64,000 bases of DNA from Xanthobacteraceae bacterium. Lineage in GTDB: Bacteria > Pseudomonadota > Alphaproteobacteria > Rhizobiales > Xanthobacteraceae. Within the stretch, counting starts at the first letter, position 1. Each line of letters begins with the position of its first letter. The notes beneath the pieces were generated by a model. It ran no database searches and had not been told where the DNA came from. It saw only the letters and a list, made by a program, of their open reading frames with translations. The position numbers and the translations under genes were made by a program. The stretch lies in contig JASHOX010000144.1 in assembly GCA_030038415.1 (NCBI GenBank), forward strand, positions 5,325 to 69,324. The letters are read 5' to 3'. Shown here piece after piece: positions 19,185 through 60,401 of this stretch.

Positions 19185-19192
19185 AGCGTTCC

Positions 19193-24942: not shown

Positions 24943-25214
24943 TGTGGCGGTCCTCCCGTTCCTTATCAGCATCGCTTCGCGCGTGGACGGGCGCTCGACG
25001 GTGGTGTTATGGTGCTTGACGGCGGCGGCTCGACGAACGCCGACGCGCCGGCAATTTTATTACGAAAAAATCGGCAAATCCAAACTTCTCAAGGCGCCGC
25101 GGGCGAAAAGCGTTCCGCACAACAGAACGTCGGGACAGCGTAAATAGCACCGTCGCGGTTGCACGGCGGCGGCGGGAGTGCTTCAAGCTTCGATCAACGC
25201 GGACCGGACCGAAT

Positions 25215-40079: not shown

Positions 40080-41526
<1,447 letters not shown>

Positions 41527-41619
41527 CGCTCTCTCCGTTCGGGCACAGCTCCCGTTTATCTTTGACATATATAGCGCAGCCGTCATTGGCAACATAAGCC
41601 ATGCGCCGGATGCTTAAAC

Positions 41620-42000
41620 CTAATGAGGCGGGGTCGTTCCCAACAATTGCAATTCGTAGTCCCGGGCGGTTGCGGTCTTGCCGTCGAAGCCGCGAACGCC
41701 GAACACTTTTATACCTTTTCCAATCTCGGCCTGGACGACGATCACCGGCACCGGCTTCTCGCCGCGTTTGGTGAAATAAGCGTATTGCGGAATGGCAATA
41801 TTCATCGGCTTGCCGAAATAGATGCCGTAGGCCCTCAGCACGAAGACGGCATTGCCGGCGGTAATGTCATCATCAGTCGCGGGCCGGCCGGAAATAAAGC
41901 CCTTGGCCGGCAAGGGCGGCCAATTGAGCGGCGCGGTCTGCGCCGCGGCACCTGCGGCCACGCCCAGAGCCAACAAAAAAGCTGCAAGCCGCGCCAACAT
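41620..42000 (-). CDS. Secreted hypothetical protein
   Basis: 126 aa. Signal peptide MLARLAAFLLALGVAAGAAAQ. I recognise no family. Lies between ligI and ligA on the same strand. Confidence 0.5.
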   Translation of the reverse strand: MLARLAAFLLALGVAAGAAAQTAPLNWPPLPAKGFISGRPATDDDITAGNAVFVLRAYGIYFGKPMNIAIPQYAYFTKRGEKPVPVIVVQAEIGKGIKVFGVRGFDGKTATARDYELQLLGTTPPH

Positions 42001-42010
42001 TGGAATTGGT

Positions 42011-45091: not shown

Positions 45092-46996
45092 ATGGCCAGC
45101 GTATCCACCTTTGCCGCACAGGACAGGCCGCCGCTGCGGCCGGTCAAGCTCGGGCCGCCGGATGTCGTCGTCGAACGCCGCGGCGACGGCGCGATTTTGC
45201 TGCGCTCGCCGCATCCGCTGCCGCCGCATCCGCAGAAACTCACCGCGCGGCTGACGCATTGGGCCAACGCCGCGCCGGAGCGCGTCTTCCTGGCGCAGCG
45301 CGACGCGCAAAGTGCTGCGAGCTGGCGAACGATGACTTATGCGGACACGCTGACGGCGGTTGAATCGATTGCGGCAGCGCTGCTGCAGCGCGATTTGTCG
45401 CCGGACCGGCCGCTTGCCATCCTCTCCGGCAACGACATCGAGCATGCGCTGCTCGCGCTCGCCGCCATGCATGTCGGCATTCCTTACGCGCCGATCTCGG
45501 TGCCGTATTCGCTGCTGTCGGCCGATTTCGGTAAGCTCAAAGCCATCATGCAACAGCTGGCGCCGGGTCTTGTCTTTGCCGCAAGCGGTACGGCTTTCGC
45601 GCGCGCCATCGCCGCCGCCGTGCCGGCGGATGCCGAAATCGTCGTCACCGCTCATCCGCCGCCCAACCGCAACACCACGCCGTTCTCCGAACTCATGACG
45701 GCACCGCCGTCGCCTGCGGTCGCGGCGGCGCATGGCGAAGTCGGTCCCGGGACGATTGCAAAGATTCTTTTTACTTCCGGCTCGACCGGGCAGCCGAAGG
45801 GCGTCATCAACACGCAGCTGATGCTGTGCGCCAACCAAGCGATGATCCGCGCCGGGCTTACCTTTCTCGCCGACGAGCCGCCAGTCATCGTCGACTGGCT
45901 GCCGTGGAACCACACCTTCGGCAGCAACCACAATTTCGGCCTGGTGCTCGACAATGGCGGCTCGCTCTATATCGACGAAGGCAAGCCGTTGCCCGGCGCC
46001 ATCGAAGCGACGGTGCGCAATCTGCGCGACATCGCGCCGACGGTCTATTTCAATGTGCCGAAGGGCTTTGAGATGCTGTTGCCTTATCTCGCGGCCGAGC
46101 CGGCGCTGCGCGAGAGGTTTTTCAGCCGGCTCAAGGTCATGTTCTATGCCGGCGCGGCGCTGGCGCAGCATGTGCTCGACGCCTATGAGGAGCTTGCGGT
46201 CAAAACTGTCGATGAGCGCATCCTGTTCATGTCGAGCCTCGGTTCGACCGAAACCGCGCCGGCGGCGCTGGCTTGTTCGTGGGACGCCGAGCGCGCCGGC
46301 AATATCGGCCTGCCGCTGCCGGGCGTCGACCTCAAACTGGTGCCGCGCGAAGGCAAGCTCGAAGCCCGGCTCAAAGGCGCCAATATCACGCCCGGCTATT
46401 GGCGCGCGCCGCAATTGACCGCGGCGGCGTTCGACGCCGAGGGCTATTACCGGATCGGCGACGCCTTGAAGTTCGATGACCCCGACCATCCCGCCAAAGG
46501 CTTGCTGTTCGACGGTCGGCTCGCCGAGGATTTCAAGCTCGCCACCGGCACCTGGGTCAGTGTCGGGCCGTTACGCGCGGCTTTCATTGCGCATTTTGCC
46601 CCGCTCGTCCGCGACGTGGTCTTCGCCGGCCCCGACCGCGACGAGGTCACGGCTCTGGTGTTTCCCGATCTCGACACCTGCCGCAAAGCCGCGCCCGGCG
46701 CCGCCGCGGACATTCCGGCGCGATCGTTGCTTGCCGACCCAGGCATCGTGGCCGAGTTCGTCCGTCGTCTTGATTCGTTCTTCGCCGCTGCAAGCGGCAC
46801 GTCGAGCCGCGTCACCCGTATGATCCTATTGCACGAGCCGCCGTCGCTCGATCTCGGCGAGATGACCGATAAAGGCTCGATCAACCAGCGCGCGGTGCTG
46901 GCCAATCGCGGGCACTTGGTCGAAGAACTTTACGCCGAAACGCCGCCGGCTCACGTTGTCGTCGCCGGCTTAAGACAAACCGAACAGGTGAATTGA
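45092..46996 (+). CDS. Feruloyl-CoA synthase-like AMP-binding enzyme (FCS family, about 630 aa type)
   Basis: 634 aa. N-terminus RPVKLGPPDVVVERRGDGAILLRSPHPL...LTHWANAAPERVFLAQR, AMP motif ILFTSGSTGQPKGV, YRIGDAL. The length and N-terminal pattern match proteins commonly annotated as feruloyl-CoA synthase. Confidence 0.7.
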   Translation: MASVSTFAAQDRPPLRPVKLGPPDVVVERRGDGAILLRSPHPLPPHPQKLTARLTHWANAAPERVFLAQRDAQSAASWRTMTYADTLTAVESIAAALLQRDLSPDRPLAILSGNDIEHALLALAAMHVGIPYAPISVPYSLLSADFGKLKAIMQQLAPGLVFAASGTAFARAIAAAVPADAEIVVTAHPPPNRNTTPFSELMTAPPSPAVAAAHGEVGPGTIAKILFTSGSTGQPKGVINTQLMLCANQAMIRAGLTFLADEPPVIVDWLPWNHTFGSNHNFGLVLDNGGSLYIDEGKPLPGAIEATVRNLRDIAPTVYFNVPKGFEMLLPYLAAEPALRERFFSRLKVMFYAGAALAQHVLDAYEELAVKTVDERILFMSSLGSTETAPAALACSWDAERAGNIGLPLPGVDLKLVPREGKLEARLKGANITPGYWRAPQLTAAAFDAEGYYRIGDALKFDDPDHPAKGLLFDGRLAEDFKLATGTWVSVGPLRAAFIAHFAPLVRDVVFAGPDRDEVTALVFPDLDTCRKAAPGAAADIPARSLLADPGIVAEFVRRLDSFFAAASGTSSRVTRMILLHEPPSLDLGEMTDKGSINQRAVLANRGHLVEELYAETPPAHVVVAGLRQTEQVN

Positions 46997-47759: not shown

Positions 47760-48193
47760 TCGCCGCAATGCTGACCAACACCCGTACCGTCCGCATCGAA
47801 TGGGGCGACTGCGACCCCGCCGGAATCATCTTCTATCCGCGCTATTTCGCGATGTTCGACACCTCGACGACCATGCTGATCGAGCGCGCGGCCGGCATGA
47901 AGAAGATCGAGTACCTCAAGGCCTATGCCATTGCCGGCCATCCGGTGATTGAGACGCGGGCGAAATTTCGCCTGCCGACCCGGTTCGGCGACGAGGTCTC
48001 GATCGAAAGCGCGGTAGTCGCCTGCGGCAGATCGAGCTTCAAGATCGAGCATCGCCTCACTTACGCTGGCGCGCTTGCGGTCGAGGGGTCGGAGACGCGG
48101 GTCTGGGTGGGCCGCGACCCCACCGACCCCACGCGGATGAAATCGCAGGCCATCCCATCCGAGCTGGTCGCGCGGCTCACGCATGGCAGCTGA
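47756..48193 (+). CDS. 4HBT/YbgC-type hotdog-fold acyl-CoA thioesterase
   Basis: VRIEWGDCDPAGIIFYPRYFAMFD is the 4-hydroxybenzoyl-CoA thioesterase (Pseudomonas-type) family N-terminal catalytic pattern. Has a 4-nt overlap with the SDR gene. Confidence 0.8.
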   Translation: MIAAMLTNTRTVRIEWGDCDPAGIIFYPRYFAMFDTSTTMLIERAAGMKKIEYLKAYAIAGHPVIETRAKFRLPTRFGDEVSIESAVVACGRSSFKIEHRLTYAGALAVEGSETRVWVGRDPTDPTRMKSQAIPSELVARLTHGS

Positions 48194-48262
48194 TATTGGC
48201 GCTGTTTCCGACCGGCCCGAAAGTGCGCTAGAAGCCTAGCCGCCAAAAGGAAGGAAACACCC

Positions 48263-49288
48263 ATGTCCATGCGTGTCGACGCCTATACCCATTTTTTTCC
48301 GGAACGGTTCTTCACCAAGCTCAACGAAGTCGCCGGCGATTATAAGGACATGGGCAAGCGTATCCGCTCGCTGCCGGCTTTGTTCGATCTCGACGTGCGC
48401 AAGAAGATCGTCGACGGCCACAAGGACTACCAGCAGATTCTGTCCTACCCACAGCCGCCGATCGAGCGTTTCGCCAAGACGCCGGCGGGCATCGACGAGT
48501 TCTGCCGGATCATCAACGACGGCTTTGCCGAGCTGATCGCCAAGGAGAAGGATCACTTCCCCGGCTGGGTGGCGCAGGTATCGCTCGCGGCGCCGGATGC
48601 CGGCGTCGCCGAAGCGGAGCGCGCGATGAAGATGGGCGCGCTCGGCGTGCAGATCTATACCAATGTCGCCGGCAAACCGCTCGACCGGCCGGAATACGCG
48701 CCGTTCTGGAAAAAGATGAACGAGCTCGGCGCGCCGATCTGGCTGCATCCGGCGCGTGGCGCCGAGACGCCGGATTATCCCGACGAGAAGAAATCGCTCT
48801 ACGAAATCTGGTGGACCATCGGCTGGTCTTACGAGACCGCCTGCGCCATGCTGCGGCTCGTTTATTCCAAGATTATGGACACCCACCCCAACTTGAAAAT
48901 CATCACCCATCACTTCGCCGGTATCGTGCCGATGCTGGAAGGCCGGCTCGGGCCGGGCAATGACGTGATGGGCAACCGCACCACCGACGAGGATTATGTC
49001 GGCCTGCGCAAGAGCCTGAAAAAGCGCCCGCTTGACTATTTCAAGAACGATTTCTGGGCCGACACCGCCGCGTTCACCGCCGAACCGGCGACCAAATGCG
49101 GCATGGAGTTCTTCCCCATCGACAAGATCGTGTTCGCTTCGGACTGCCCGTTCGATCCGGAGGGCGGCACCATGTTCCCGCGCGAGACCTTGCGGATTCT
49201 CGACAAGCTGAAGATGGACAAGGCCACAAGCGACAAGGTCTTCTACAAGAACCTCGAAGCGGTCACCGGAAAGACGCTGGTGAAATGA
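48263..49288 (+). CDS. Amidohydrolase_2 family protein (ACMSD/LigW-like metal-dependent decarboxylase/hydrolase)
   Basis: MRVDAYTHFFP (metal-binding HxH-type start), LHPARG, ITHHFAG and FASDCPFD follow the amidohydrolase-2 decarboxylase pattern. Confidence 0.75.
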   Translation: MSMRVDAYTHFFPERFFTKLNEVAGDYKDMGKRIRSLPALFDLDVRKKIVDGHKDYQQILSYPQPPIERFAKTPAGIDEFCRIINDGFAELIAKEKDHFPGWVAQVSLAAPDAGVAEAERAMKMGALGVQIYTNVAGKPLDRPEYAPFWKKMNELGAPIWLHPARGAETPDYPDEKKSLYEIWWTIGWSYETACAMLRLVYSKIMDTHPNLKIITHHFAGIVPMLEGRLGPGNDVMGNRTTDEDYVGLRKSLKKRPLDYFKNDFWADTAAFTAEPATKCGMEFFPIDKIVFASDCPFDPEGGTMFPRETLRILDKLKMDKATSDKVFYKNLEAVTGKTLVK

Positions 49289-49289
49289 T

Positions 49290-49319
49290 CTCCCTCTCCC
49301 CGGGAACGGGGAGAGGGAG
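49290..49319. terminator. Bidirectional stem-loop between convergent genes
   Basis: CTCCCTCTCCCCG (49290-49302), loop GGAA, then CGGGGAGAGGGAG (49307-49319). Perfect 13-bp GC-rich stem starting 2 nt after the amidohydrolase stop. There is no strong U-tract, so intrinsic termination is uncertain. Confidence 0.55.
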
Positions 49320-49337
49320 CCGCTAGCCAATGGCCGC

Positions 49338-50705
49338 TCAGGCCGCCGAGCGCCGCTCGGCCGCGCCTTGATGTCCGTCGTACTCGGCGGAGACATCCTT
49401 GCCGGTATAGTCCTTGAGGAACGCCGTTGCGACGATCGAAATCACCGCGGTGATCAGGATATAGATTGCGATCGGCGTGCCCGATTTATAGGCGGCAAAC
49501 AACGCGGTCGCGATCAGCGGCGCCGGACCGCCGGCGGTGATCGAGGCGAGCTGATAGCCGATCGACGCGCCCGAATACCGCAGCCGCGGCGTGAAGCTTT
49601 CGGCAATCAGTGCCGCTTGTGGCCCGTATTGCATGTCATGCGGGATCAGCGACAGCACCATCGCCAGGAAGATCAACACCGAGGAGCCGGTGTCGAGCAG
49701 CCCGAAATAGACGAAGCCGAACACCCCCATTGTCGCGCAGCCGATGATGTACATCTTCTTGCGCCCGATCAGATCGGAGACATAGCCGGAGAGCGGGATG
49801 GTGATCGCCGAAATGCAGACCGCGCAAAGCACACCCGCCAGCAGCAGATCGCGCGACGCATGTAGTGTCGTCGTGCCGTAAGCGAAGACGAAGGCGGTGA
49901 AGATGTAGAACGGGCCTTGTTCGGAGGTGCGCGCCAGCGCCGTGAGGATGATCGTACCCCATTGCTTTTTGCACACTTCGACAATCGGCGCCCGTTCGAT
50001 CTTTTGCTGGGCCACCAGGTTGCGGAACACCGGCGTTTCCATGATGCGCAGCCGGATCCACAGACCGATGCCGACCAGCACGATGCTCAACGCGAATGGA
50101 ATGCGCCAGCCCCAGGCAAAAAACTGATCGCCGGACATCTGGCTGAAGACCAGCACGGCGAGGTTGGCCAGGAACAATCCCGCGGGCCCGCCGAATTGCG
50201 GCCAGGACGTGAGAAACCCGCGCTCGCCATTGTGCCGCGCCCATTCCATCGACAAGAGCACCGAGCCGCCCCACTCGCCGCCGACGCCGATGCCCTGCAG
50301 CAGGCGCAGAACGGTCAGCAGCACGGCGCCCCACATTCCGATCACCGCGTAGCCGGGAAGGAATGCCACCAGGAAGGTCGAGACTCCCATCAACAGGAGA
50401 GTGACGATGAGCGTCGACTTGCGGCCGATCCGATCGCCGTAATGGCCGAAGATGAAGGCGCCGATCGGGCGCGCGACAAAGCCGACGAAGTAGATGCCGA
50501 ATGAGTTGAGTGTCGCAGTCAGCGGGTCCTCGTTCGGAAAGAACAGCTTGCCGAAGACGAGACCGGCCATCGTTGAGTAGAGGAGAAAATCGTACCACTC
50601 GATCGTGGTTCCCACCGTCGCGGCGACGACTGCGCGACGGAGTTCGCGAGCATGCTGGTCTGGCGTCAACGCGTAATTGACATCGGTTACCGCTGCCATT
50701 GTCAT
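49338..50705 (-). CDS. MFS transporter, metabolite:H+ symporter (MHS) type
   Basis: VGTTIEWYDFLLYSTMAGLVFGKLFF and GAFIFGHYGDRIGRK are MHS family motifs. 12 predicted TM segments. Likely start at ATG 50705 or 50699. The ORF is open upstream to a TTG at 50840. Confidence 0.85.
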   Translation of the reverse strand: MTMAAVTDVNYALTPDQHARELRRAVVAATVGTTIEWYDFLLYSTMAGLVFGKLFFPNEDPLTATLNSFGIYFVGFVARPIGAFIFGHYGDRIGRKSTLIVTLLLMGVSTFLVAFLPGYAVIGMWGAVLLTVLRLLQGIGVGGEWGGSVLLSMEWARHNGERGFLTSWPQFGGPAGLFLANLAVLVFSQMSGDQFFAWGWRIPFALSIVLVGIGLWIRLRIMETPVFRNLVAQQKIERAPIVEVCKKQWGTIILTALARTSEQGPFYIFTAFVFAYGTTTLHASRDLLLAGVLCAVCISAITIPLSGYVSDLIGRKKMYIIGCATMGVFGFVYFGLLDTGSSVLIFLAMVLSLIPHDMQYGPQAALIAESFTPRLRYSGASIGYQLASITAGGPAPLIATALFAAYKSGTPIAIYILITAVISIVATAFLKDYTGKDVSAEYDGHQGAAERRSAA

Positions 50706-50790
50706 TCCCTCCCTGGATTTAATGTTACGTTGGCATTTCCCCTTTTCATGCGCCGCCGCTGCAGCTGTTTTCGCCGCAGGCACGGTCTTC

Positions 50791-50828
50791 ATCGCCGCAT
50801 GCGCGGCTTCTATCGCCGCGTGCGCGGC
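50791..50828. promoter_or_regulatory. Two tandem 17-bp palindrome-containing repeats upstream of the MFS gene (candidate operator)
   Basis: ATCGCCGCATGCGCGGC (50791-50807) and ATCGCCGCGTGCGCGGC (50812-50828), with a 21-nt period. Each has inverted arms GCCGC/GCGGC. Confidence 0.5.
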
Positions 50829-50932
50829 GTTCGGATGCAATCATCCTCCCTTTGGCGAGACTTGCCAAGGATAGAGTTCGCCAAGGTTGGGGATTGGTCC
50901 GGGTCGGCGCTGCGACGTTTTGGCTGAATGAA

Positions 50933-51853
50933 TCAGCGGCCTGCTTGCACCGCGCTGCCGCGCGGCTCGCGTGCGGCACGGCCTTCGAGCCGGCGCGACA
51001 GCGCCGCGGGAATATCGCGCGGCGTGTCGACGACGACAACTCCCGCACGCTCGAGCGCGCTGCGCTTGGAGTCATAGCTGCCGGCGGTCCCGGTGACGAT
51101 GGCGCCGGCGTGGCCCATCTTCTTGCCCGGCGGCGACGCGCGCCCGGCGATGAAGGCAACCACGGGCTTTTCCATCCCGGCGGCGTATTCGGCGGCGCTT
51201 TCTTCCATGGCGCCGCCGATCTCGCCGACTAGAACCACGGCCTCGGTGCGCCCGTCTTTATCGAGCGCGATCAGCGCGTCGCGTGTCGTCGTGCCGATCA
51301 TCGGATCGCCGCCGATACCGATGAAGGCCGATTGGCCGATCCCGGCGCGGGTCAGATTGAGACAGACCAGCGTGCCGAGGCTGCCGCTGCGCGACACGAC
51401 GCCGACCGAGCCGGGGCGGAAAATGTTGGGATTATGCCCGGGCATGATGCCGACGAAGCCTTCGCCTGGCGTCACCAGCCCCGCCGTATTCGGGCCGACG
51501 ACGTGCGTGCCGGCGCGCCGCGCGGCGAGCAGCACTGCCATGACATCCTGCGCCGGAATGTGCTCGGTGAGCATGACCAGGAGCTTGACGCCCGAGGCGA
51601 TGGCTTCCAGCGCCGCCGGTTTGGCGAGCGCCGGCGGAATAAACATCACCGCAGTGTCGTAGGGCGCTTTCGCCATCGCATCGGCCGCCGATGCGAACAC
51701 GGGCACGCCGATATGAGTCTCGCCGGCACGCTTAGGATTGACGCCGCCGACGACGCACGTGCCGCACTCGATCATCTTTTCGGTCCAGAACGTGCCTTGT
51801 TTGCCGGTAATGCCGGACACCAGCACGCGATGGGCTTTGCGATGGATGATCAT
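50933..51853 (-). CDS. Succinyl-CoA-synthetase-alpha-like subunit of an NDP-forming acyl-CoA ligase
   Basis: VLVSGITGKQGTFWTEKMIECGTCVVGGVNPKRAG (CoA-binding Rossmann fold), SRSGSLG, and the phosphohistidine loop KKMGHAGAIVTG. The start was fixed by counting 306 codons from the stop. ATGA overlap with the beta-like gene. Confidence 0.8.
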   Translation of the reverse strand: MIIHRKAHRVLVSGITGKQGTFWTEKMIECGTCVVGGVNPKRAGETHIGVPVFASAADAMAKAPYDTAVMFIPPALAKPAALEAIASGVKLLVMLTEHIPAQDVMAVLLAARRAGTHVVGPNTAGLVTPGEGFVGIMPGHNPNIFRPGSVGVVSRSGSLGTLVCLNLTRAGIGQSAFIGIGGDPMIGTTTRDALIALDKDGRTEAVVLVGEIGGAMEESAAEYAAGMEKPVVAFIAGRASPPGKKMGHAGAIVTGTAGSYDSKRSALERAGVVVVDTPRDIPAALSRRLEGRAAREPRGSAVQAGR

Positions 51854-52977
51854 CGCGCCGCGTCCACTGCCGCCTGCACGGCATCTTCCATGAAATCGTA
51901 TGGCTCGACGTTGAGCTGCTCGCGCACGAGTTTGACCGCCTCGTTCTCGCCGGTGCCGTGAATGGAGAAAAACACCGGTATCTCCGGCTGCAGTTTCTTC
52001 CAGGCTTTGACGACGCCGTCGGCCATCACATCGGTGCGGGCGAACGCGCCGCAAAAATTGATCACCAGGCTTTTGACATTGGGCGCCGACAGCACGAGCC
52101 CAAGGGCGACTTCCGACTTGGTATAGGCCTCGCCGCCGATTTCGAGGAAATTTGTCGGTTTGCCGCCGCAATGGGCGATCACGTCCATGGTGGTCATGGT
52201 GAGGCCGGCGCCGTTGGCGAGCACGCCGACATTGCCGTCGAGCTCGATGAATTTCAGCCCGGCCTCGGCGCCGCGGCGCTCCAGCGCAGTGAGCTTTTCG
52301 GCGGCGCCGGCACTGGCGAGATCGCTTTGGCGAAACAGCGCGGAATCGTCCAGCGTGAATTTGCAATCCAGCGCGACGACGCGGCCGTCCTTCAATAGCG
52401 CCAGTGGATTGATCTCGATCAGCTCGGCGTCGCGGGCGCGGTAGATCGCGTGGAGCGATTTCAGGACGGCGGCGATTTTCGGCTCGGCATCGCCGAGCCC
52501 GAGACCCGCGAGCATGGCGCGCGCGGCGTGATCGTCGAAGCCCTGATCGACTTCGAGGCCATGACGGCGCACGGCATCGGGCCGCGCCGCCGCGACTTCC
52601 TCGATCTCCATGCCGCCTTCGGTGGAGAACAGAACCAGCGGCCGGCGCGCGGCAAAATCGGTGAGCACCGCGGCGTAGAATTCGCGTGCGATCTCGGCGC
52701 GTTCCTCGACCAGCACTTTTTCGACGCGATAGCCGTCGATCTCCATGCCGAGGATCGCCTGCGCCGCGGCGCCGGCCTCGGCGGCGCTGTCGGCCTTGCG
52801 GATGCCGCCAGCCTTGCCGCGTTTGCCGGTCGGCACCTGCGCCTTGACCACGCAGGGCCCGATCTCGGCGAACGCGGCTTCCGTTTCGTCCGCCGTGATG
52901 CATAGCTTGCCGCGCGGCACGGCGATCGACGCCGGTGCCAGCACCTTCGCCTTGGCGGCGTGCTCTTCGAAATTCAT
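51850..52977 (-). CDS. Succinyl-CoA-synthetase-beta-like (ATP-grasp) subunit of an NDP-forming acyl-CoA ligase
   Basis: MNFEEHAAKAKVLAPASIAVPRG...VVKAQVPTGKRGKAGGI...EINPLAL...GNVGVLANGAGLTMTTMD follows the SucC pattern. 375 aa counted from the stop. Confidence 0.8.
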   Translation of the reverse strand: MNFEEHAAKAKVLAPASIAVPRGKLCITADETEAAFAEIGPCVVKAQVPTGKRGKAGGIRKADSAAEAGAAAQAILGMEIDGYRVEKVLVEERAEIAREFYAAVLTDFAARRPLVLFSTEGGMEIEEVAAARPDAVRRHGLEVDQGFDDHAARAMLAGLGLGDAEPKIAAVLKSLHAIYRARDAELIEINPLALLKDGRVVALDCKFTLDDSALFRQSDLASAGAAEKLTALERRGAEAGLKFIELDGNVGVLANGAGLTMTTMDVIAHCGGKPTNFLEIGGEAYTKSEVALGLVLSAPNVKSLVINFCGAFARTDVMADGVVKAWKKLQPEIPVFFSIHGTGENEAVKLVREQLNVEPYDFMEDAVQAAVDAAR

Positions 52978-53003
52978 CGCAACCTCGTTCAGCGCCGGTG
53001 CAT

Positions 53004-54428
53004 TTAGTGGCCGTATTTGGCCCAATGTGGACCGAACAAATCCGCTTCGCTCGGCTTGTCCTCGGGGATCACCGTGACGAGATGCGTGATGTTGAGGAAA
53101 TGCTTGTAGCTCAGGTTCTCCGAAATGCTGTTCTTCTGCCAGGAGCCGCAGCCCATGCTCAGTGTGAAGCCAAGGCCGGAGTCGAAGCCGCCGCCATTGC
53201 CGAAAGTGTGGGCGAAGTTCATCAGCACCCGCACCACGTCGAGATCCTCGGCAAGCTCCCGCGCATGCGCCATGTCCTTGGTGTGAATGCCGCAGGAATG
53301 GCCCTTGCCCTGATAATCGAGCACGGCGCGCACCTGCGCCTTGGCGGCGGCGAAATCCTTGGCGCGATAGACGGTGAGTACGAGCGAGAGTTTCTCGCCG
53401 GAGAACGGATGCTCCTTGCCGGCGCCGGAGTCTTCCACCATGAAGAAGTCGGCGCGCGCGGCTTGTTCCGGCAAACCGAAAGCGGGCGCCAGGATTTCCG
53501 CGCTGCGCGCGATCAGATGCCGATTGAGCTTGCCGTTGTGCCACAGCGCGTGTTGCACCGCGGCTTTTTCCGGCGCCGTACACAGATAGCCGCCGATACC
53601 CTTGAGCGCTGCGATGGCCTTGTCGTAGATCGAATCGAGAATGATCACGGAATTCTCGGACGAGCATGACGTCGAATTGTCGAAAATCTTCGAGGCGCGG
53701 ATCTTGCGCGCCGCGTCGGCGAGATCGGCCGTCTCGTCGATGATGACCGGAACATTGCCGGCGCCGACGCCGATCGCCGGCGTGCCGCTCATCGCGGCGC
53801 GGCGGACATTATCCTGCGAGCCGGTGACGACAACGAGGTCGGCGGCTTTCATCAGCGCTTCGGTCAATTCCTTGGTGACCGGCGGCGGCAGCACCTGCAC
53901 CAGATCGGCCGGCAGTCCGGCCTGCGCCAAGGCAGCGCGCATATAGTCCACCGTGCGCTTGGTGGTCTCGTAGCCGAGCGGCGACGGCGCGATGACGACG
54001 GCGTTGCGCGCCTTAATCGCCATCATCGCCTTGTTCACCGGCGTGGCGGCGGGATTGGTCGACGGCGTCAGCGCGGCGACGACGCCCATCGGCTTGGCGT
54101 ATTTGACGATGCCTTTGGCCTTGTCTTCCTCGATGACGCCGACCGATTTGGCGCGCAGCAGATCGCGCAAGGTGCCGAAGGTCTTGCGCTGGTTCTTGAC
54201 GATTTTGTCGGGCACGTTGCCAAGCCCGGTATCGGCGACGGCGAGCGCGGCAAGCTCGCGCGCATGTTCCGGCTTATAGACCGACCATGCCAGCGCGCGG
54301 ACCGCCTCGTCGGCGCGCTCCTGGCTGACGTCGCGGAAGCTTGCGAATGCCGCGCGCGCCCGCCGCATCACCTCGTCAATGACCGGCTTGTGGTGGAGCT
54401 CCGCCGGCGATTTCACGGCCACAGTCAT
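53004..54428 (-). CDS. CoA-acylating aldehyde dehydrogenase (C. kluyveri SucD / SauS family); candidate sulfoacetaldehyde dehydrogenase (acylating)
   Basis: KPMGVVAALTPSTNPAATPVNKAMMAIKARNAVVIAP, NSTSCSSENS (catalytic Cys region) and MGCGSWQKNSISENLSYKHFLN parallel the C. kluyveri SucD blocks I remember. Lies 10 nt downstream of xsc. Confidence 0.75.
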   Translation of the reverse strand: MTVAVKSPAELHHKPVIDEVMRRARAAFASFRDVSQERADEAVRALAWSVYKPEHARELAALAVADTGLGNVPDKIVKNQRKTFGTLRDLLRAKSVGVIEEDKAKGIVKYAKPMGVVAALTPSTNPAATPVNKAMMAIKARNAVVIAPSPLGYETTKRTVDYMRAALAQAGLPADLVQVLPPPVTKELTEALMKAADLVVVTGSQDNVRRAAMSGTPAIGVGAGNVPVIIDETADLADAARKIRASKIFDNSTSCSSENSVIILDSIYDKAIAALKGIGGYLCTAPEKAAVQHALWHNGKLNRHLIARSAEILAPAFGLPEQAARADFFMVEDSGAGKEHPFSGEKLSLVLTVYRAKDFAAAKAQVRAVLDYQGKGHSCGIHTKDMAHARELAEDLDVVRVLMNFAHTFGNGGGFDSGLGFTLSMGCGSWQKNSISENLSYKHFLNITHLVTVIPEDKPSEADLFGPHWAKYGH

Positions 54429-54438
54429 GATCGTTCCT

Positions 54439-56217
54439 TCACTGCGCGACTTGCTGCGGGCGCATGTCCTCGCGCCGGATGCCGGCGACCCGCACCGGCT
54501 TCTTCATGGCGTCGCGGCGGAACGGCTCGCCGAGCTCCTGATTGAGGATGACCTCGATGAAAGTAGTGACGCGCTGCTTCTGCGCCTCGCATGACGCGCG
54601 CAGCGCCTCGGTCAGCTCGGTGGGCGTGCGCACGGCTACGCCCTTGAGCCCGCAGCCCTCGGCGACCTTGGCGTAGGACAGATGCGGATCGAGCTCGGTG
54701 CCGACGAAATTATCGTCGAACCAGAGAATCGAATTGCGCTTCTCGGCGCCCCACTGATAGTTGCGAAACACCACCATGGTGATGCCGGGCCATTCCTTGC
54801 GGCCGATCGAGCTCATCTCGTTCATGGAAATGCCGAAAGCGCCGTCGCCGGCAAAGCCGACGCAAGGCGTGTCCGGATTGCCGATCTTGGCGCCGATGAT
54901 CGACGGGAAGCCGTAGCCGCACGGACCGAACAGGCCCGAGGCCAGATATTTACGGCCCTTCTCGAACGTCGGATAGGCGTTGCCGATGGCGCAATTGTTG
55001 CCGATGTCGCTCGATATGATGGCGTCCTTCGGCAGCCCGGCCTGAATCGCGCGCCACGCCTGCCGCGCCGACATGCGATCCGGGTCGCGCTTGCGCGCAT
55101 CCGCGTTCCAGGTCGTGCCGGGATCATCGTCCTCGTGATCCATGCTCGACAGCGTCTGCAGCCAGCGCGACTTGGTGGTGTGGATCAGCGCCTTGCGTTC
55201 GTCGCGGCCGTCATTGCCCGCCGACGGCGCGAGCTGCGCCAGGATCGCCTTGGCGACGAGCTTGGCGTCGCCGCAGATGCCGACGGTAACCGGCTTGGTG
55301 AGGCCGATGCGGTCGGCATTGATGTCGACTTGGATCACCTTGGCGTTTTTCGGCCAGTAATCGATGCCATAGCCGGGCAGCGTCGAGAACGGATTGAGCC
55401 GCGTGCCCAGCGCCAGCACGACGTCGGCCTTGGCGATGAGCTCCATCGCCGCCTTTGAGCCGTTATAGCCGAGCGGGCCGACCGCAAGCCGATGGCTGCC
55501 GGGAAAGCTGTCATTGTGCTGGTAGTTGTTGCAGACCGGTGCGTCGAGCTTTTCGGCGAGCGCCGCGCATTCCGGAATGGCGCCGGCAAGGACAACGCCG
55601 GCCCCCGAGAGGATGGCCGGAAATTTCGCCGCCGATAAAAGCTTCGCCGCCTCGGCGATCGCATGCGCACCGCCGGCCGGACGCTCGAATTCGACGATCG
55701 CCGGCAAATTGATGTCGATCACTTGGGTCCAAAAGTCGCGCGGAATGTTGATCTGTGCCGGCGCGGAGAGACGCTTGGCCTTGGTGATGACGCGGTTGAG
55801 AACCTCGGCGGTGCGGTACGGATCGCGCACTTCCTCCTGATAGCAGACCATGTCGCGGAACAGCGCCATCTGTTCCACTTCCTGGAAGCCGCCCTGGCCA
55901 ATGGTGCGGTTCGCCGCTTGCGGCGTCACCAACAGCATCGGGGTGTGATTCCAATAGGCGGTCTTGATCGGAGTGACGAAATTGGTGATGCCGGGCCCGT
56001 TCTGCGCGATGACCATCGCCATTTTCCCGGTCGAGCGCGTATAGCCGTCGCAGATGATCCCACCGTTGCCCTCGTGCGCGACGTCCCAGAACGTGATGCC
56101 CGCGGCCGGGAAAAGATCGGAGATCGGCATGAACGCCGAACCGATGATGCCGAAAGCATGCTCGATGCCGTGCATCTGCAGGACTTTCACGAAAGCTTCT
56201 TCCGTCGTCATTTTCAT
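54439..56217 (-). CDS. xsc: Sulfoacetaldehyde acetyltransferase (ThDP-dependent)
   Basis: The N-terminus MKMTTEEAFVKVLQMHGIEHAFGIIGSAFMPISDLF...ITFWDVAHEGNGG...IAQNGPGITNFVT...YWNHTPMLLVTPQA matches Xsc sequences as I remember them. ThDP motif FAGDGAFGISMNE...VVFRNYQWGAEK. The start is placed at Met-28 of the ORF. Confidence 0.85.
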   Translation of the reverse strand: MKMTTEEAFVKVLQMHGIEHAFGIIGSAFMPISDLFPAAGITFWDVAHEGNGGIICDGYTRSTGKMAMVIAQNGPGITNFVTPIKTAYWNHTPMLLVTPQAANRTIGQGGFQEVEQMALFRDMVCYQEEVRDPYRTAEVLNRVITKAKRLSAPAQINIPRDFWTQVIDINLPAIVEFERPAGGAHAIAEAAKLLSAAKFPAILSGAGVVLAGAIPECAALAEKLDAPVCNNYQHNDSFPGSHRLAVGPLGYNGSKAAMELIAKADVVLALGTRLNPFSTLPGYGIDYWPKNAKVIQVDINADRIGLTKPVTVGICGDAKLVAKAILAQLAPSAGNDGRDERKALIHTTKSRWLQTLSSMDHEDDDPGTTWNADARKRDPDRMSARQAWRAIQAGLPKDAIISSDIGNNCAIGNAYPTFEKGRKYLASGLFGPCGYGFPSIIGAKIGNPDTPCVGFAGDGAFGISMNEMSSIGRKEWPGITMVVFRNYQWGAEKRNSILWFDDNFVGTELDPHLSYAKVAEGCGLKGVAVRTPTELTEALRASCEAQKQRVTTFIEVILNQELGEPFRRDAMKKPVRVAGIRREDMRPQQVAQ

Positions 56218-56269
56218 CGTTTCAATCCTTGTTCGATTCCGGCATTCACGTCCGCCGGGGAGATGAGAT

Positions 56270-57103
56270 TTACGTCCTGTCCTGAAAAGTCTCGGCAAGC
56301 TCCTCGGCCGCGCCGCGCAGCGCCGGCAGATGCTCGCGGGCCATGCGAACGTTCATGCGCGCCTCCGGCGCCTGGATCGCAATCGCGGCGAGCATCTCGC
56401 CGTTGCGTCCGAGCACCGGCACCGCCACGCAAACGACGCCCGCAAGATATTCCTCGCGGTCGAACGACACCTGCTCCTTGCGGATTTGCTTCAACTCGGC
56501 CTCCAGCAGCGCGTGCTCGGTTATGGTGCCGGCGGTGAAACGGCGCAGCTCGAGGCTTTGCAACAGCCGCTGGCGGCGCCGGGCCGGCAGCAGCGCCAGA
56601 TGCAGCTTGCCGATGGCGCTGCAATGCAGCGGCACCCGCGTGCCGGCGCCGAAATGCAGGCGCAGCGGCCAGTGCTCGGCCTCGACGCGGTCGAGATAGA
56701 CGATCTCGCCATTGAGGATGACGCCGATATTGCAGGTTTCGTTCACCTGATGGGCGAGCCGGCGCAACAGCGCATGGCGGCCGGAATCGCGCATCGACGC
56801 GCGCATCGTGCCGAAGGCAAGATCGGTGAGCCGCGATCCCACGGTCAGGCGCTTGCGCGCCGGTTCGCGGGCCAGATAGCCGGAACTGACCAGCCCGTCG
56901 ACCAGGCGGTAGGCTGTCGCCTTCGGCAGCGCCAGGGTTTCGATGACGCTGGCGACTTCGACCGCCACCGGGGAATGCGCGACGAGATCGAGAATGGCGA
57001 AGGTACGCGCCGTCGCCGTGGAGATCGCCTCGTGCTCGCCGCGCACCGTGTCGTCGCGCGTCGTCTCGTGGTGGAAGCTGTCCGTCATTGCTTGTGTGCT
57101 CAT
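56270..57103 (-). CDS. IclR family transcriptional regulator
   Basis: wHTH ARTFAILDLVAHSPVAVEVASVIETLALPKATAYRLVDGLVSSGYL plus an IclR effector domain (VPLHCSAIGKLHLALL). The start overlaps the tctA stop by 4 nt. Confidence 0.85.
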   Translation of the reverse strand: MSTQAMTDSFHHETTRDDTVRGEHEAISTATARTFAILDLVAHSPVAVEVASVIETLALPKATAYRLVDGLVSSGYLAREPARKRLTVGSRLTDLAFGTMRASMRDSGRHALLRRLAHQVNETCNIGVILNGEIVYLDRVEAEHWPLRLHFGAGTRVPLHCSAIGKLHLALLPARRRQRLLQSLELRRFTAGTITEHALLEAELKQIRKEQVSFDREEYLAGVVCVAVPVLGRNGEMLAAIAIQAPEARMNVRMAREHLPALRGAAEELAETFQDRT

Positions 57104-58632
57104 CGCGGCTCACCGGAAATAACTACTGCCGCCGTACGGCGGCGCATAAGGAAGAGTTGACGCAGCAGCGGATAGCTTAGCGCCAGGATCGACCCGACCA
57201 TCAGCGGACCGCAGATCGGTCCCCGAAAGAACACGGTCCAATCGTTGTCGCTACTTATCATGCTGCGCATGAAGGCGGTCTCGCCGACCGGTCCCAAAAT
57301 CGCGCCGAGCACCATCGGCGAAATCGGAAATCTAAGTTTCTCGAACAGATAGCCAAGCACGCCGAAGATTACGATCATCCAGACGTCCGACATGTCGTTG
57401 CGATTGGCATAGGCGCCGACCAGGCAGAACATCACCACGATGGCGGAGAGAACGCCCTGCGGGATGGTCAGGACTTTGACTACGACCCTGATCCAAAAGA
57501 AACCGACCAGGCACATGCCGATGACGGATGCGAACATCGAGGCGAGGATGGTGTAGACCATCAGCGAGGACGCCGAATCCTCAAACAGCATCGGGCCCGG
57601 CTGCACGCCGTGCAGCAGGAACGCGGCCAGGATGACGGCGGTGGCGCCGCTGCCCGGCAGGCCCAATGTCAAGAGCGGGATCATGTGGCCCGCAACCGAG
57701 GCCGTGGCGCCGATCTGCGGCGCGACGATGCCCTCCGGAATGCCGGTGCCGAGCAACTGCCGCCGCCGACCGTATTGCTTCTCGATGCCGTAGGAGATGA
57801 ATGAGGTGATGGTGGCGCCGGCGCCCGGCACGATGCCGAGCACCGTACCCAGCACTGTGCTGCGGAACAGCGTCATCTTGATCGCCAAGAATTCGCGCAG
57901 CGACGGAAACTGCGTGGCGACGTTGACCTTGGCTTCCTTCGGCTTGTCGAGATGCAGGCCTTGGCCGATCCGCGCCAGTACTTCGCCGAGGCCGTACATG
58001 CCGACCAGGACCTCGACCAGTTGCACGCCGTCGCGCAGGATCGGCACGCCGAAAGTGAAGCGATCGGTGCCGTAGATGCTGTCGATGCCGATCGTCGCCA
58101 CCAAGAGCCCGACGCATAGACTGATCAGCGAGTTGACCAGCGATTTTCCGGCGAGCGCGACGACGGTGGTGAGACCAAAGAACACCGCGGCGAAATAGTC
58201 CGGCGAATCGAATTTAAGCGCGGCCTCGCTCATCGGGCCGGCCAGCGCCACCATGACCGCCGACGACACCAGGCCGGCGATGAGCGCAGCAAGGAGCGCC
58301 CAGCCCAGCGCCTTCGCCGGCTGGCCGCGTTTGGCCATGGTGTAGCCATCCCACAGCATCGGCACGTCCATCGGCTCGCCTGGGATACGGTAGAGGATAG
58401 CGGTGAAGCAGCCGCCATAGGTGCCGGAGAAATAGATGGCGGTGAGCAGGATGACGGCGGGCTCGATCGGCATTTGATAGGTAAACGGCAGCGCCAGGAT
58501 CACGCCCATCACGAGTCCGAGGCCCGGCATGATCGAGACCGCCATGCCGACCAATAAGCCGACGAACAGCATCAGCAGGTCGAACGGCTGGAAAACCTCG
58601 ACGAAGCCGTGAGCGAGATTGCCGATCACCAC
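57100..58632 (-). CDS. tctA: TTT transporter large membrane subunit TctA
   Basis: 510 aa. MPGLGLVMGVILALPFTYQM... and GIVPGAGATITSFISYG are TctA patterns. Confidence 0.9.
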   Translation of the reverse strand: MVIGNLAHGFVEVFQPFDLLMLFVGLLVGMAVSIMPGLGLVMGVILALPFTYQMPIEPAVILLTAIYFSGTYGGCFTAILYRIPGEPMDVPMLWDGYTMAKRGQPAKALGWALLAALIAGLVSSAVMVALAGPMSEAALKFDSPDYFAAVFFGLTTVVALAGKSLVNSLISLCVGLLVATIGIDSIYGTDRFTFGVPILRDGVQLVEVLVGMYGLGEVLARIGQGLHLDKPKEAKVNVATQFPSLREFLAIKMTLFRSTVLGTVLGIVPGAGATITSFISYGIEKQYGRRRQLLGTGIPEGIVAPQIGATASVAGHMIPLLTLGLPGSGATAVILAAFLLHGVQPGPMLFEDSASSLMVYTILASMFASVIGMCLVGFFWIRVVVKVLTIPQGVLSAIVVMFCLVGAYANRNDMSDVWMIVIFGVLGYLFEKLRFPISPMVLGAILGPVGETAFMRSMISSDNDWTVFFRGPICGPLMVGSILALSYPLLRQLFLMRRRTAAVVISGEPR

Positions 58633-58643
58633 GCCGCCGCCTC

Positions 58644-59201
58644 CTAATGCACGCCCATCGCGGCCATCAGCGCATAAGACAGCCGATCGAACGGCGCGAC
58701 GCCGACCGGCAGCGCCACATAGACCACGCGCATGAACATGAACATGAAGGCGAATGCGATCGCCACGCTCAAGAGGACGGCCGGAACGAAGCGCCGGTAG
58801 TGGCCGAGATACATAAGGACGAAGGCGTAAACAATCGTCGCCAGGAAGAAGCCGAGCACCGGCAGGATGAGGAGATAACCGACCGTGGCCGCGACGGCGA
58901 CCCAGACCAGCCAGGGATAGATCTCGGGCGGTCGGACTAGCGTTTCCATCTCATCGGCGTCGGCGATCGCGTCCGATTTTCCGATTTGCAACGCCGACGA
59001 CACCGCGCCCCACAATGCCGACGCCAACATCAGGACCAGAATGAGCTTCGGCCAGGCGCCCGGACCGATTCGCCCCGACGACTGCTCGAATTCGAAGTTC
59101 TCGGCGGTGTAGTAAAGATACGCGCCTGCCGCGAGCACGACGAGATAAGGCAGCGTCGCCCGGCACCGCTCCAGCACTGTGACCGCTTTGCCCGAACTCA
59201 C
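58644..59201 (-). CDS. tctB: TTT transporter small membrane subunit TctB
   Basis: 185 aa, four hydrophobic segments, GPGAWPKLILVLML motif. Lies between tctC and tctA. Confidence 0.8.
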   Translation of the reverse strand: MSSGKAVTVLERCRATLPYLVVLAAGAYLYYTAENFEFEQSSGRIGPGAWPKLILVLMLASALWGAVSSALQIGKSDAIADADEMETLVRPPEIYPWLVWVAVAATVGYLLILPVLGFFLATIVYAFVLMYLGHYRRFVPAVLLSVAIAFAFMFMFMRVVYVALPVGVAPFDRLSYALMAAMGVH

Positions 59202-60160
59202 TTCGATCCCGTCTTTGTTGAAGCCAAAATACTCTTGGCCTGCGTCAGCCAGGAATCCATAAAGCCGCGCGCCTTATCCATCGGCACGTAGCTGTCCGGA
59301 TCGGCATATTGCTGATCGAGATAGGCCTTGAACTCCGGGGTCTGCGCCACTTTCGCCAGCGCCTCGGAGAGGAGCTTGACCCGCGCCGGGTCGGTGCCGG
59401 CTTTGACCACGATGGAGCGGAACTGCGGCAGCGTGACGTCGTAGCCGAACTCCTTGGACACCGGGACATTGGCGAATTGCGGAATGCTGAGCCGGTGCGA
59501 ATAGAAGAAGATCAGCGGCCGGATCTTGCCGCCGTCGAAATAGCTGCGCACGTCGCCGGTCTGCTCATAAAGCACATCGGCATTGCCGCCGAGAATCGAG
59601 GTGTAGCGCAGCTCCGGCTCGGCATAAGGGATCGGCTCGAATTTGAAACCTTGCTTATCCAAGTAGGACGTCGTGATGTCATCGGCGCTGCCAAAGCCGA
59701 GCACCGCGACCTTGAGCGTCTGCTGCTTGGCCGTCGCCGCGAGCTCTTGCCAGGTGTGCCATTTGCTCTGGGTGTTGACCCAATAGCCGGACGGCTGCTG
59801 GATCATAATGGCAAGTGGAATGACCTGATCGGCGGTGAAGCCGGGATGCGGTCCAGCGAGCAACGAATAGGTGTCGCCGATCAGCACGGCGAGCGTATAG
59901 CCGTCGGCCGGGGAGTTCAGGAGTTTGGTGATGCCGGTCTGTCCGGTCGCGCCCGGCACATTGAGCACCGGAAACGAGACGCCGAGATCCTGCGACATGA
60001 TCTTGCCCGCGGTGCGCGCCAACAAATCGGCGCCGCCGCCCGGTCCCCACGGCACGATGAAGTTGATCGGGTGGTCGGGATACTTCTCTTGCGCGTGCGA
60101 CGCGGGCGCCAGTGCAAAAGCGAGAGCTATCGCAAGCCACGCCGTTTTTTTAGCGACCAT
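59198..60160 (-). CDS. tctC: TTT substrate-binding protein TctC/Bug family
   Basis: Signal peptide MVAKKTAWLAIALAFALAPASHA, then INFIVPWGPGGGADLLARTAGKIM...LNVPGATGQTG. The start is placed at Met-63 of the ORF, after a GGGAGGA Shine-Dalgarno sequence. Has a 4-nt overlap with tctB. Confidence 0.85.
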   Translation of the reverse strand: MVAKKTAWLAIALAFALAPASHAQEKYPDHPINFIVPWGPGGGADLLARTAGKIMSQDLGVSFPVLNVPGATGQTGITKLLNSPADGYTLAVLIGDTYSLLAGPHPGFTADQVIPLAIMIQQPSGYWVNTQSKWHTWQELAATAKQQTLKVAVLGFGSADDITTSYLDKQGFKFEPIPYAEPELRYTSILGGNADVLYEQTGDVRSYFDGGKIRPLIFFYSHRLSIPQFANVPVSKEFGYDVTLPQFRSIVVKAGTDPARVKLLSEALAKVAQTPEFKAYLDQQYADPDSYVPMDKARGFMDSWLTQAKSILASTKTGSK

Positions 60161-60401
60161 TGTCGATCCTCCCTGGGTTTTGCTTTTGTCGGCCCGTTCA
60201 ACGCGCGGTGGCAGCTTTTTGTTGGCGCGCGCCAAACATTCCATTTTCTCATTGATTGAGACGTATGGTTTTAAAAGGCAATAGCATAGTGTTAGTCTGA
60301 CGACAACGAGACCGAACGGTGCAGCAGTGCCGGGGATTTCGCGCAACGCCGCGAATAACAGAAACGAAAATCACAGTCTGAAAAACCAAGGGGAGGCTGA
60401 G

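Follow-up and report, generated by a model that had tools for sequence, protein, structure and literature searches.

Gene content and anatomy of the cluster

The DNA analysed here is a 64-kb stretch (64,000 nt, hereafter the window) of contig JASHOX010000144.1 from a Xanthobacteraceae bacterium. Its minus strand carries, at 50933-56217, a block of four genes encoding sulfoacetaldehyde acetyltransferase (Xsc), an acylating aldehyde dehydrogenase of the SauS type and the two subunits of a ligase resembling succinyl-CoA synthetase (SucCD). A first-pass annotation had read this block as a candidate operon for sulfoacetate desulfonation. The four genes were correctly recognised, but the unit is larger: it extends upstream to tctC at 60160, and takes in three genes of a tripartite tricarboxylate transporter (TTT) and an iclR gene (56270-60160) that had been missed. 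A major facilitator superfamily (MFS) gene downstream (49338-50702) had likewise been overlooked. The features are as follows.

59198-60160, minus strand: tctC, 320 aa from the ATG at 60160, preceded by GGGAGGA; PF03401 at 67.6 bits
58644-59201, minus strand: tctB-like gene, 185 aa, small membrane subunit; open reading frame (ORF) placed between tctC and tctA
57100-58632, minus strand: tctA-like gene, 510 aa, large permease subunit; ORF with counterparts in relatives
56270-57103, minus strand: iclR, 277 aa; partial NCBIfam matches
54439-56217, minus strand: xsc, 592 aa; TIGR03457 equivalog
53004-54428, minus strand: sauS, 474 aa; NF047625 equivalog
51850-52977, minus strand: sauC-like gene, 375 aa; ATP-grasp_2 and Ligase_CoA domains
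50933-51853, minus strand: sauD-like gene, 306 aa; CoA_binding, Ligase_CoA and Succ_CoA_lig domains
49338-50702, minus strand: MFS gene, 454 aa from the ATG at 50702; metabolite:H+ symporter family, TIGR00883
60247-60262, minus strand: inverted repeat GTCTCAATCAATGAGA, candidate operator about 90 nt upstream of the tctC start codon

Read directly from the sequence, the intergenic distances in the four-gene block are 10 nt between xsc and sauS (54429-54438) and 26 nt between sauS and sauC (52978-53003), and the sauC/sauD junction is an ATGA stop/start overlap (51850-51853). The coordinates, lengths, gaps and overlap reported in the first-pass annotation are all present exactly, and so are the peptide motifs that it quoted, which are given below with the proteins that contain them. 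Upstream, 4-nt overlaps join the tctC stop to the tctB start and the tctA stop to the iclR start, tctB and tctA are 11 nt apart, and a 52-nt spacer then precedes xsc. The GC fraction at third codon positions is 0.82-0.84 in all four genes of the block, compared with 0.44-0.53 at the second position; such a high value fits the 64% GC sequence and argues that the genes are real. Consensus scans of 48000-61000 for promoters and terminators were uninformative, with five promoter-like sites versus 2.6 expected, and terminator-like matches inside genes.

The identity of Xsc is clear. The 592-aa product scores 945.7 bits against TIGR03457 (cut-off 676.4) and 1021 bits against NF005713 (cut-off 620), whereas the best score against acetolactate synthase models is 281.5 bits (cut-off 538). 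It has the TPP_enzyme_N, _M and _C Pfam domains, starts with MKMTTEEAFVKVLQMHGIEHAFGIIGS and carries the thiamine diphosphate (ThDP) motif GDGAFGISMNE...VVFRN. Passing both cut-offs supports the initial assignment as sulfoacetaldehyde acetyltransferase, as opposed to an acetolactate synthase type. The 474-aa product, earlier called SauS-like, contains NSTSCSSENS and MGCGSWQKNSISENLSYKHFLN and also passes its equivalog model, NF047625 (AcylSulfactDhSauS), with 800.9 bits against a cut-off of 600; the SauS proteins of Azospirillum and Rhodococcus described below score 812.6 and 804.6 bits with the same model. It is assigned as a CoA-acylating sulfoacetaldehyde dehydrogenase, and we propose that it acts in the reductive direction.

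The SucCD-like ligase and its genomic company

The two remaining products of the block had been assigned to the SucC (ATP-grasp) and SucD (CoA-binding) types, and their Pfam domains agree. Neither subunit reaches the housekeeping equivalog level: the beta subunit scores 355.5 bits against a SucC cut-off of 370 (NF001913 / NF004230 set), and the alpha subunit, which carries the phosphohistidine loop KMGHAGAIV, scores 328.8 bits against a SucD cut-off of 336. The score with the malate-CoA ligase model NF010647 (MtkA) is 270.7 bits, far under the cut-off of 604. Identity to the E. coli proteins is 37% for the beta subunit (SucC) and 46% for the alpha subunit (SucD); to E. coli SucC and to annotated SucC/MtkA genes on plasmids alike, the beta subunit is 36-37% identical. 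Its best match in the PDB is the beta subunit of Thermus succinyl-CoA synthetase (SCS; 3ufx, 279 bits). The catalytic residues of succinyl-CoA synthetase are His246-alpha, Glu208-alpha and Glu197-beta (PMC10342173). In alignments of both subunits the columns of their equivalents are invariant, which indicates that the phosphohistidine mechanism is intact.

Other parts of the protein depart from the canonical sequence. In the beta subunit the motif FLEIGGE--AY, with a one-residue deletion, replaces canonical FLDVGGG-Axx, and INFCGAFARTD, which takes the form (I/V)N(F/L)C-GAFARTD in the nearest representatives, replaces canonical NIFGGIxRCD. Further changes relative to SucCD are GPNCPG to GPNTAG, and a three-residue insertion in the alpha subunit. 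By comparison with SCS and ATP-citrate lyase structures, the altered loops may line the organic-acid site.

Relatives of the beta subunit were sought among 1.84 billion representatives at the 50%-identity level, where identity drops fast (60, 54, 50 and 48%) before a broad field of canonical SucC at 35-43%. A neighbour-joining tree with bootstrap, built from the beta subunit, the representatives, E. coli SucC and about 100 canonical representatives, places the window protein in an 18-member clade (bootstrap 92/100) apart from E. coli SucC and the canonical representatives. Within it, the SauS-linked members are not cleanly monophyletic. The representatives at 60, 54 and 48% identity again adjoin SauS-like genes (L091, L092 and L082).

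The clade also has members in other settings. SucCD-like pairs with 45-50% identity to the window beta subunit, from Chloroflexota and other metagenomic contigs, directly follow 2-oxoacid:ferredoxin oxidoreductase genes (L084 7163-12215; L087 1021-7259), and because of this arrangement the signature clade probably includes enzymes that are not sulfoacetate ligases. Since clade members occur in non-sulfonate contexts, we rejected CGAFARTD plus FLEIGGE-AY as a sole diagnostic of sulfoacetate ligases. A SauC-like protein (P0245/P0307; FLEIGGD--AY and VNFC-GAFARCD) comes from a sponge-associated metagenome-assembled genome (MAG) of 'Candidatus Poriferisodalaceae', an origin in keeping with the published proposal that sponge symbionts have sulfoacetate use as a trait. 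Another representative, P0309, found on many contigs, was considered as a Bilophila-type candidate and dismissed as a housekeeping SucCD adjoining glycine-cleavage genes. No glycyl-radical enzyme gene was seen at the loci of the ten beta-subunit representatives viewed in context, and no Bilophila or Desulfovibrio names occur in the two representative clusters inspected. A 'sucCD' pair on a Skermanella plasmid was set aside as a housekeeping reference; it sits in an oxalate/formate cluster and is not clean.

The module is conserved well beyond the window. Among contigs representing one genome per species, 555 stretches contain relatives of the beta subunit, and the counts that follow refer to the best 80 of these (beta subunit 68-93% identity). 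The 80 loci belong to uncultured soil Xanthobacteraceae MAGs, Pseudolabrys, Methylobacterium isolates, Afipia sp. 1NLS2, Methylovirgula and others, the closest being about 89% identical to the window in DNA, which places the window in a related, uncultured lineage of the Xanthobacteraceae. The sauS gene lies immediately upstream of the ligase beta gene in all 73 loci with enough flank, and sauD immediately downstream of it in 77 of 77. An xsc gene (at least 70% identity) is found within 10 kb in 49 of 54 loci, directly upstream of sauS in 52 of 69, and TctA and IclR are present in most. The Methylobacterium and Afipia loci have LysR and MFS_1 transporter genes directly 5' of sauS-sauC-sauD. 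On the 3' side of sauD in Methylobacterium loci, as in Methylobacterium sp. NFXW15 (L034 12059-16394), genes follow for a histone-deacetylase-family protein, a 564-aa GMC oxidoreductase and an MFS transporter of the MHS type. The isethionate dehydrogenase IseJ is a GMC-family enzyme, and the Methylobacterium oxidoreductase could be a linked C2-sulfonate function.

Annotated replicons extend the picture to other aerobes. Seven records of Azospirillum brasilense and A. argentinense chromids encode SauC, SauS and Xsc with 68, 73 and 80% identity, in the order IclR-IclR-(Pta-like phosphotransacylase)-TctC-TctB-TctA-SauS-SauC-SauD-(molybdopterin oxidoreductase, 4Fe-4S subunit, DmsC-type anchor)-hypothetical-Xsc. 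From its make-up, the three-subunit molybdoenzyme would be a SoeABC-type sulfite dehydrogenase; no specific model matched it. Indioceanicola profundi has the same gene set. Plasmid pDK3 of Rhodococcus sp. DK17 encodes SauC (52% identity) and SauS (58%) in a cluster with Xsc, PntAB transhydrogenase, an MFS transporter, SauS-SauC-SauD, IclR and a TauE/SafE sulfite exporter. The proton-translocating PntAB lies between xsc and the MFS/sauS-sauCD genes (L096 1562-4600), and may supply NADPH specifically for the reduction by SauS. The Azospirillum and Rhodococcus clusters indicate that, in two phyla of aerobes, sauS-sauCD travels with Xsc and with functions for acetyl phosphate, sulfite and NADPH. 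Neighbours typical of the tricarboxylic acid (TCA) cycle (mdh, sucAB, lpd) are absent around the ligase genes in the window, whose flanks are sauS, xsc and the MFS gene, and no TCA-cycle genes surround the annotated plasmid-borne counterparts in Azospirillum, Indioceanicola and Rhodococcus.

These replicons also show which gene the ligase pair replaces. Plasmid SauS homologues of at least 58% identity (Azospirillum, Indioceanicola and Rhodococcus) co-occur with SucCD-like genes, and the Rhodobacterales homologues (48-51%; Ruegeria, Paracoccus and relatives) are followed by an AMP-binding gene; those of Burkholderiales (Caballeronia, Paraburkholderia) are 52-53% identical. Ruegeria sp. THAF33 has the order TctA-TctB-TctC-SauS-AMP-binding protein, matching the SauT-type cluster of Liu et al. 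(PMC10413351), and the window, Azospirillum and Indioceanicola have TTT, SauS, SucC-like and SucD-like genes. Because an AMP-binding gene occupies the equivalent position in an otherwise equivalent Ruegeria cluster, the SucCD-like pair fills the slot of SauT, the AMP-forming ligase, and the earlier claim that a two-subunit ligase forming a nucleoside diphosphate (NDP) stands there is borne out by position. The window operon itself has no AMP-binding (PF00501) gene; the nearest are at 45092-46996 (plus strand, PRK12582-type) and 28562-30067, in unrelated clusters. From sequence and setting, we propose that the pair is a SauCD-type, ADP-forming sulfoacetate-CoA ligase.

Transporter, regulator and surrounding genes

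TctC is found at the conserved position in related loci, in one type with 75-98% identity and in a second with about 50%, and TctA counterparts in the same slot are 84-96% identical. The TctA of the window is 39% identical to an Azospirillum gene annotated as a TTT permease. TctB, assigned here by position, is conserved in related loci, and its Azospirillum counterpart is annotated as TctB family. By analogy, TctC is proposed as the sulfoacetate-binding component, the counterpart of Bilophila SauZ.

The IclR protein gives partial NCBIfam matches to BhcR, PcaR and IclR, all under the cut-offs, and an iclR gene lies within 10 kb in 49 of 54 fully flanked loci. Upstream of tctC, the repeat GTCTCAATCAATGAGA (GTCTCA-N4-ATGAGA) is the sole match in the 64-kb window, with 0.18 expected by chance. 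The exact motif GTCTCA-N4-ATGAGA occurs in 31 loci, as a single site in all but two; in 49 of 69 loci a copy with at most one mismatch precedes the first cluster gene by no more than 450 bp, and such copies occur almost nowhere else. At that tolerance it covers essentially all loci with an IclR gene in the operon. The Azospirillum copy (L095 2346-2361) lies just 5' of the first iclR gene. None of the Methylobacterium and Afipia loci has the repeat; LysR or divergent regulators are found there. The repeat is a candidate operator of the IclR protein, and its conserved position suggests that tctC to sauD form one transcription unit. A perfect 14-bp GC palindrome that stands between this repeat and the start of tctC, TTGGCGCGCGCCAA (60222-60235), was rejected as operator: it is shared at this position only with one related locus (L005) and is not conserved.

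Whether the MFS gene belongs to the sulfoacetate system is uncertain. It scores 402 bits against TIGR00883 (cut-off 443), lies about 230 nt from sauD behind its own Shine-Dalgarno-like GGGAGGG, and stands 3' of sauD in a few of the closest loci only (L001, L002, L005 and L007). The remaining window content includes Flp pilus genes, a hybrid histidine kinase, further TTT genes, LigAB and acyl-CoA metabolism genes. The extra TTT components, a 709-aa TctA-TctB fusion and a separate TctC-family binding protein (17136-19265 and 23965-24972), fit the large TTT repertoires of these bacteria. At 40080-42886, LigB and LigA (aromatic ring-opening dioxygenase) adjoin an amidohydrolase with a partial match to 4-sulfomuconolactone hydrolase (218.6 bits, below the cut-off of 500); the group is probably a protocatechuate 4,5-cleavage-type cluster with no relation to the sulfoacetate operon. 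A 1135-aa fusion of MFS, acyltransferase and AMP-binding domains (8466-11873) resembles the lysophospholipid transporter / acyl-ACP synthetase type.

Proposed pathway, alternatives and known systems

Turnover of sulfoquinovose and taurine commonly yields sulfoacetate, as do detergents, and the way in which this compound is mineralised therefore matters for the soil sulfur cycle. We consider it likely that the eight genes tctC-tctB-tctA-iclR-xsc-sauS-sauC-sauD form an operon with which an aerobic soil member of the Xanthobacteraceae uses sulfoacetate as a carbon source. Context and precedent suggest sulfoacetate as the substrate of both transporter and ligase, as well as the direction of flux. 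According to this model the TTT system would import sulfoacetate, and the SucCD-like heteromer would convert sulfoacetate, CoA and ATP, via a phosphohistidine, to sulfoacetyl-CoA, ADP and Pi. SauS would then reduce sulfoacetyl-CoA with NAD(P)H to sulfoacetaldehyde, from which Xsc, using phosphate, would release acetyl phosphate and sulfite. Both products would be processed by genes elsewhere, pta or ackA for the former and a sulfite dehydrogenase or exporter for the latter, and the IclR protein would probably act on the inverted repeat ahead of tctC to control the operon. Since activation goes from ATP to ADP, and acetyl phosphate keeps a high-energy bond, the route should cost about one ATP equivalent less than that through the AMP-forming SauT.

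The catabolic direction is favoured by the uptake system, the Xsc gene within the cluster, the PntAB of Rhodococcus, and the sulfite-oxidation and Pta-like genes of Azospirillum; the accessory genes in Azospirillum/Indioceanicola and Rhodococcus only make sense for desulfonation of sulfoacetaldehyde. The enzymes could also be imagined to run oxidatively, converting sulfoacetaldehyde from taurine, isethionate or sulfoquinovose to sulfoacetyl-CoA and on to sulfoacetate with gain of ATP, and Xsc would form a branch in parallel. SauS is reversible, as are SucCD-type ligases, SqwD/SqwKL operate in this manner in anaerobes (PMC12890257), and the assay of Bilophila SauS was run oxidatively (PMC10413351). 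However, a binding-protein-dependent TTT for uptake, a cluster containing no taurine or isethionate dehydrogenase or aminotransferase genes, and an Xsc that would compete for the same aldehyde all speak against it; moreover, PntAB fits consumption of NADPH, and the Azospirillum genes fit complete degradation. We regard the oxidative direction as quite improbable. The substrate deserves similar scrutiny, insofar as Bilophila SauCD also accepts 3-sulfopropionate (20% activity) and malonate (7%; PMC10413351), a related 3-sulfopropionate-CoA ligase, HpfYZ, exists (PMC12890257), and the same sequence clade has members in non-sulfonate settings. The ligase might activate 3-sulfopropionate, malonate or another small sulfonated or dicarboxylic acid, with sulfoacetate as a side substrate, or accept a broader range of sulfonates. 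This seems unlikely to us: the partner dehydrogenase passes the SauS equivalog model, the linkage to Xsc is kept across phyla, and, since Xsc acts specifically on the C2 aldehyde, only a C2 sulfonated acyl-CoA can be the intermediate that joins the three enzymes.

Least credible is the view that the ligase genes encode a housekeeping succinyl-CoA synthetase, or a malate-CoA ligase, that lies beside xsc and sauS by chance. Their best family matches are indeed the SucC and SucD models, with near-threshold scores, and RefSeq names some orthologues sucC with a TCA-cycle Gene Ontology (GO) term. Nevertheless, the scores fall under both equivalog cut-offs and far under that for MtkA, identity to E. 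coli SucC and the plasmid SucC/MtkA proteins is as low as given above, and the beta subunit belongs to a well-supported separate clade with altered motifs. The context is never mdh/sucAB and invariably SauS, and in Azospirillum and Rhodococcus the genes reside on accessory replicons. We therefore hold a housekeeping role to be very improbable indeed.

The interpretation of the operon as a route for sulfoacetate catabolism should nevertheless be treated with some caution, since several observations count against it. The window holds neither a pta nor a sulfite-handling gene, as the first-pass annotation had already remarked; consistent with that remark, Pfam scans of about 40 other window ORFs, a few small ones of which went unmatched, found no pta, TauE/sulfite exporter or sulfite dehydrogenase. 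Relatives of the beta subunit with the same signature and 40-50% identity adjoin 2-oxoacid:ferredoxin oxidoreductase, SDR, HMGL or PTAC/GntR genes, and in view of these unrelated contexts the signature alone does not specify sulfoacetate. That ADP, and not GDP, is the nucleotide product is assumed from the family. Finally, no description or test of the module in soil alphaproteobacteria, Azospirillum, Methylobacterium or Rhodococcus was found in the literature searched.

Current annotation obscures the module. RefSeq labels the beta subunit either 'sucC, ADP-forming succinate--CoA ligase subunit beta', with the TCA-cycle GO term, or 'ATP-grasp domain-containing protein', the alpha subunit 'CoA-binding protein' and SauS 'aldehyde dehydrogenase family protein' (labels drawn from L095 10001-12030, L098, L100 and the plasmid matches H1-H8). 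The Azospirillum beta orthologue scores 371.0 bits against the SucC cut-off of 370, and such a score, barely above threshold, explains the inconsistent naming. This systematic under- and mis-annotation means that metabolic reconstructions miss the pathway. Culturable carriers are available among Azospirillum, Methylobacterium, Afipia and Rhodococcus strains, and the conserved inverted repeat with IclR offers a candidate sulfonate-responsive regulator-operator pair.

The closest biochemical precedent is that of Bilophila wadsworthia, in which SauCD, a SucCD-type, ADP-forming and sulfoacetate-specific ligase, works with SauS and the TTT transporter SauXYZ (PMC10413351), so that the enzyme mentioned in the first-pass annotation does exist. 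In that organism sulfoacetaldehyde is first reduced, and the resulting isethionate is then split by the glycyl-radical enzyme IseG (Liu et al., J Biol Chem 2023; PMC10413351). Like the Bilophila cluster SauXYZ-SauS-SauCD-TauF-IseGH, the present operon has a two-subunit ligase adjoining an acylating dehydrogenase and a TTT, and the first two steps would be the same, the ligases being likened here by description. Unlike that strict anaerobe with its O2-sensitive IseG, the operon stands in the genome of an aerobe and would pass the aldehyde to the ThDP-dependent Xsc; it has no TauF or IseG, and its IclR regulator is encoded inside the operon. Bilophila SauS is only 37% identical to that of C. necator (PMC10413351), and for this reason the window SauS and Bilophila SauS may belong to different sub-lineages.

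In Cupriavidus necator H16, sauRSTU and Xsc provide the aerobic route described by Weinitschke et al. in 2010, as summarised in PMC10413351. To the extent of that summary, the two systems share aerobic conditions, sulfoacetyl-CoA as an intermediate, an NADPH-dependent SauS in C. necator, and formation of acetyl phosphate and sulfite by Xsc. They differ in activation, by a single-subunit AMP-forming SauT in C. necator and by a predicted NDP-forming SucCD-like heteromer in that gene position here; in uptake, by the MFS protein SauU as opposed to a TTT; and in the predicted cost, two ATP equivalents as opposed to one. Alpha- and gammaproteobacterial clusters were said to be 'mostly' of the SauT type, and aerobes were suggested to favour the AMP-forming route (PMC10413351). 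The SauCD paper thus framed the ADP-forming ligase as an energy saver for anaerobes and SauT as the aerobic solution, whereas the comparative data here tie the SauCD-type module to Xsc in aerobic soil bacteria, across hundreds of species-level genomes. One may speculate, although we find it doubtful, that the SucCD-type ligase is the prevailing sulfoacetate activator in aerobic soil bacteria (Hyphomicrobiales, Azospirillaceae and Rhodococcus), co-evolved with its own SauS subclade and recruited independently of the Bilophila and Firmicutes enzymes. If that were true, the published rationale for aerobes favouring the costlier AMP-forming route would fail, and the CGAFARTD and FLEIGGE-AY loops would mark a second, convergent way to bind a sulfonate in the SucCD fold.

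More distant likenesses are found in anaerobic Firmicutes, where SqwD/SqwKL (the sulfo-TK pathway) and HpfX/HpfYZ (3-sulfopropionate), again likened by description, also pair an acylating dehydrogenase with an ADP-forming SucCD-type ligase (PMC12890257; PMC11489063). Those systems run oxidatively, conserve ATP and excrete the sulfonated acid, without Xsc or desulfonation. With housekeeping SucCD (E. coli 1jkj; Thermus 3ufx) the window ligase shares fold, domain order and catalytic residues, and differs from it in the altered motifs, lower identity and genomic context.

The nearest predicted counterpart is that of 'Ca. Ahtobacter symbioticus', a gammaproteobacterial sponge symbiont of the Arenicellales known from a MAG, which has a sauSCD and TTT cluster with xsc and pta elsewhere (mSystems 2025; PMC12625764). 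In this presumably aerobic organism, sauS-sauCD is linked to a TTT as in the window, and the predicted hybrid pathway is the same. The first-pass annotation knew of no characterised aerobic, Xsc-coupled version; biochemical work on one was indeed not found in the literature searched, but the genotype had been predicted in silico in that study (PMC12625764). Given Bilophila SauCD (2023) and the sponge-symbiont prediction of sauSCD with xsc (2025), the enzyme type and the concept of the hybrid pathway are already known. That prediction, however, is a bioinformatic note on one marine MAG. In the present case xsc lies inside the operon, a candidate operator is conserved, and the module has a wide distribution that takes in soil Hyphomicrobiales, Azospirillaceae and Rhodococcus. 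What is new, then, is the breadth of the module in aerobes, the anatomy of an operon that includes xsc, the candidate operator and the mis-annotation of the genes.

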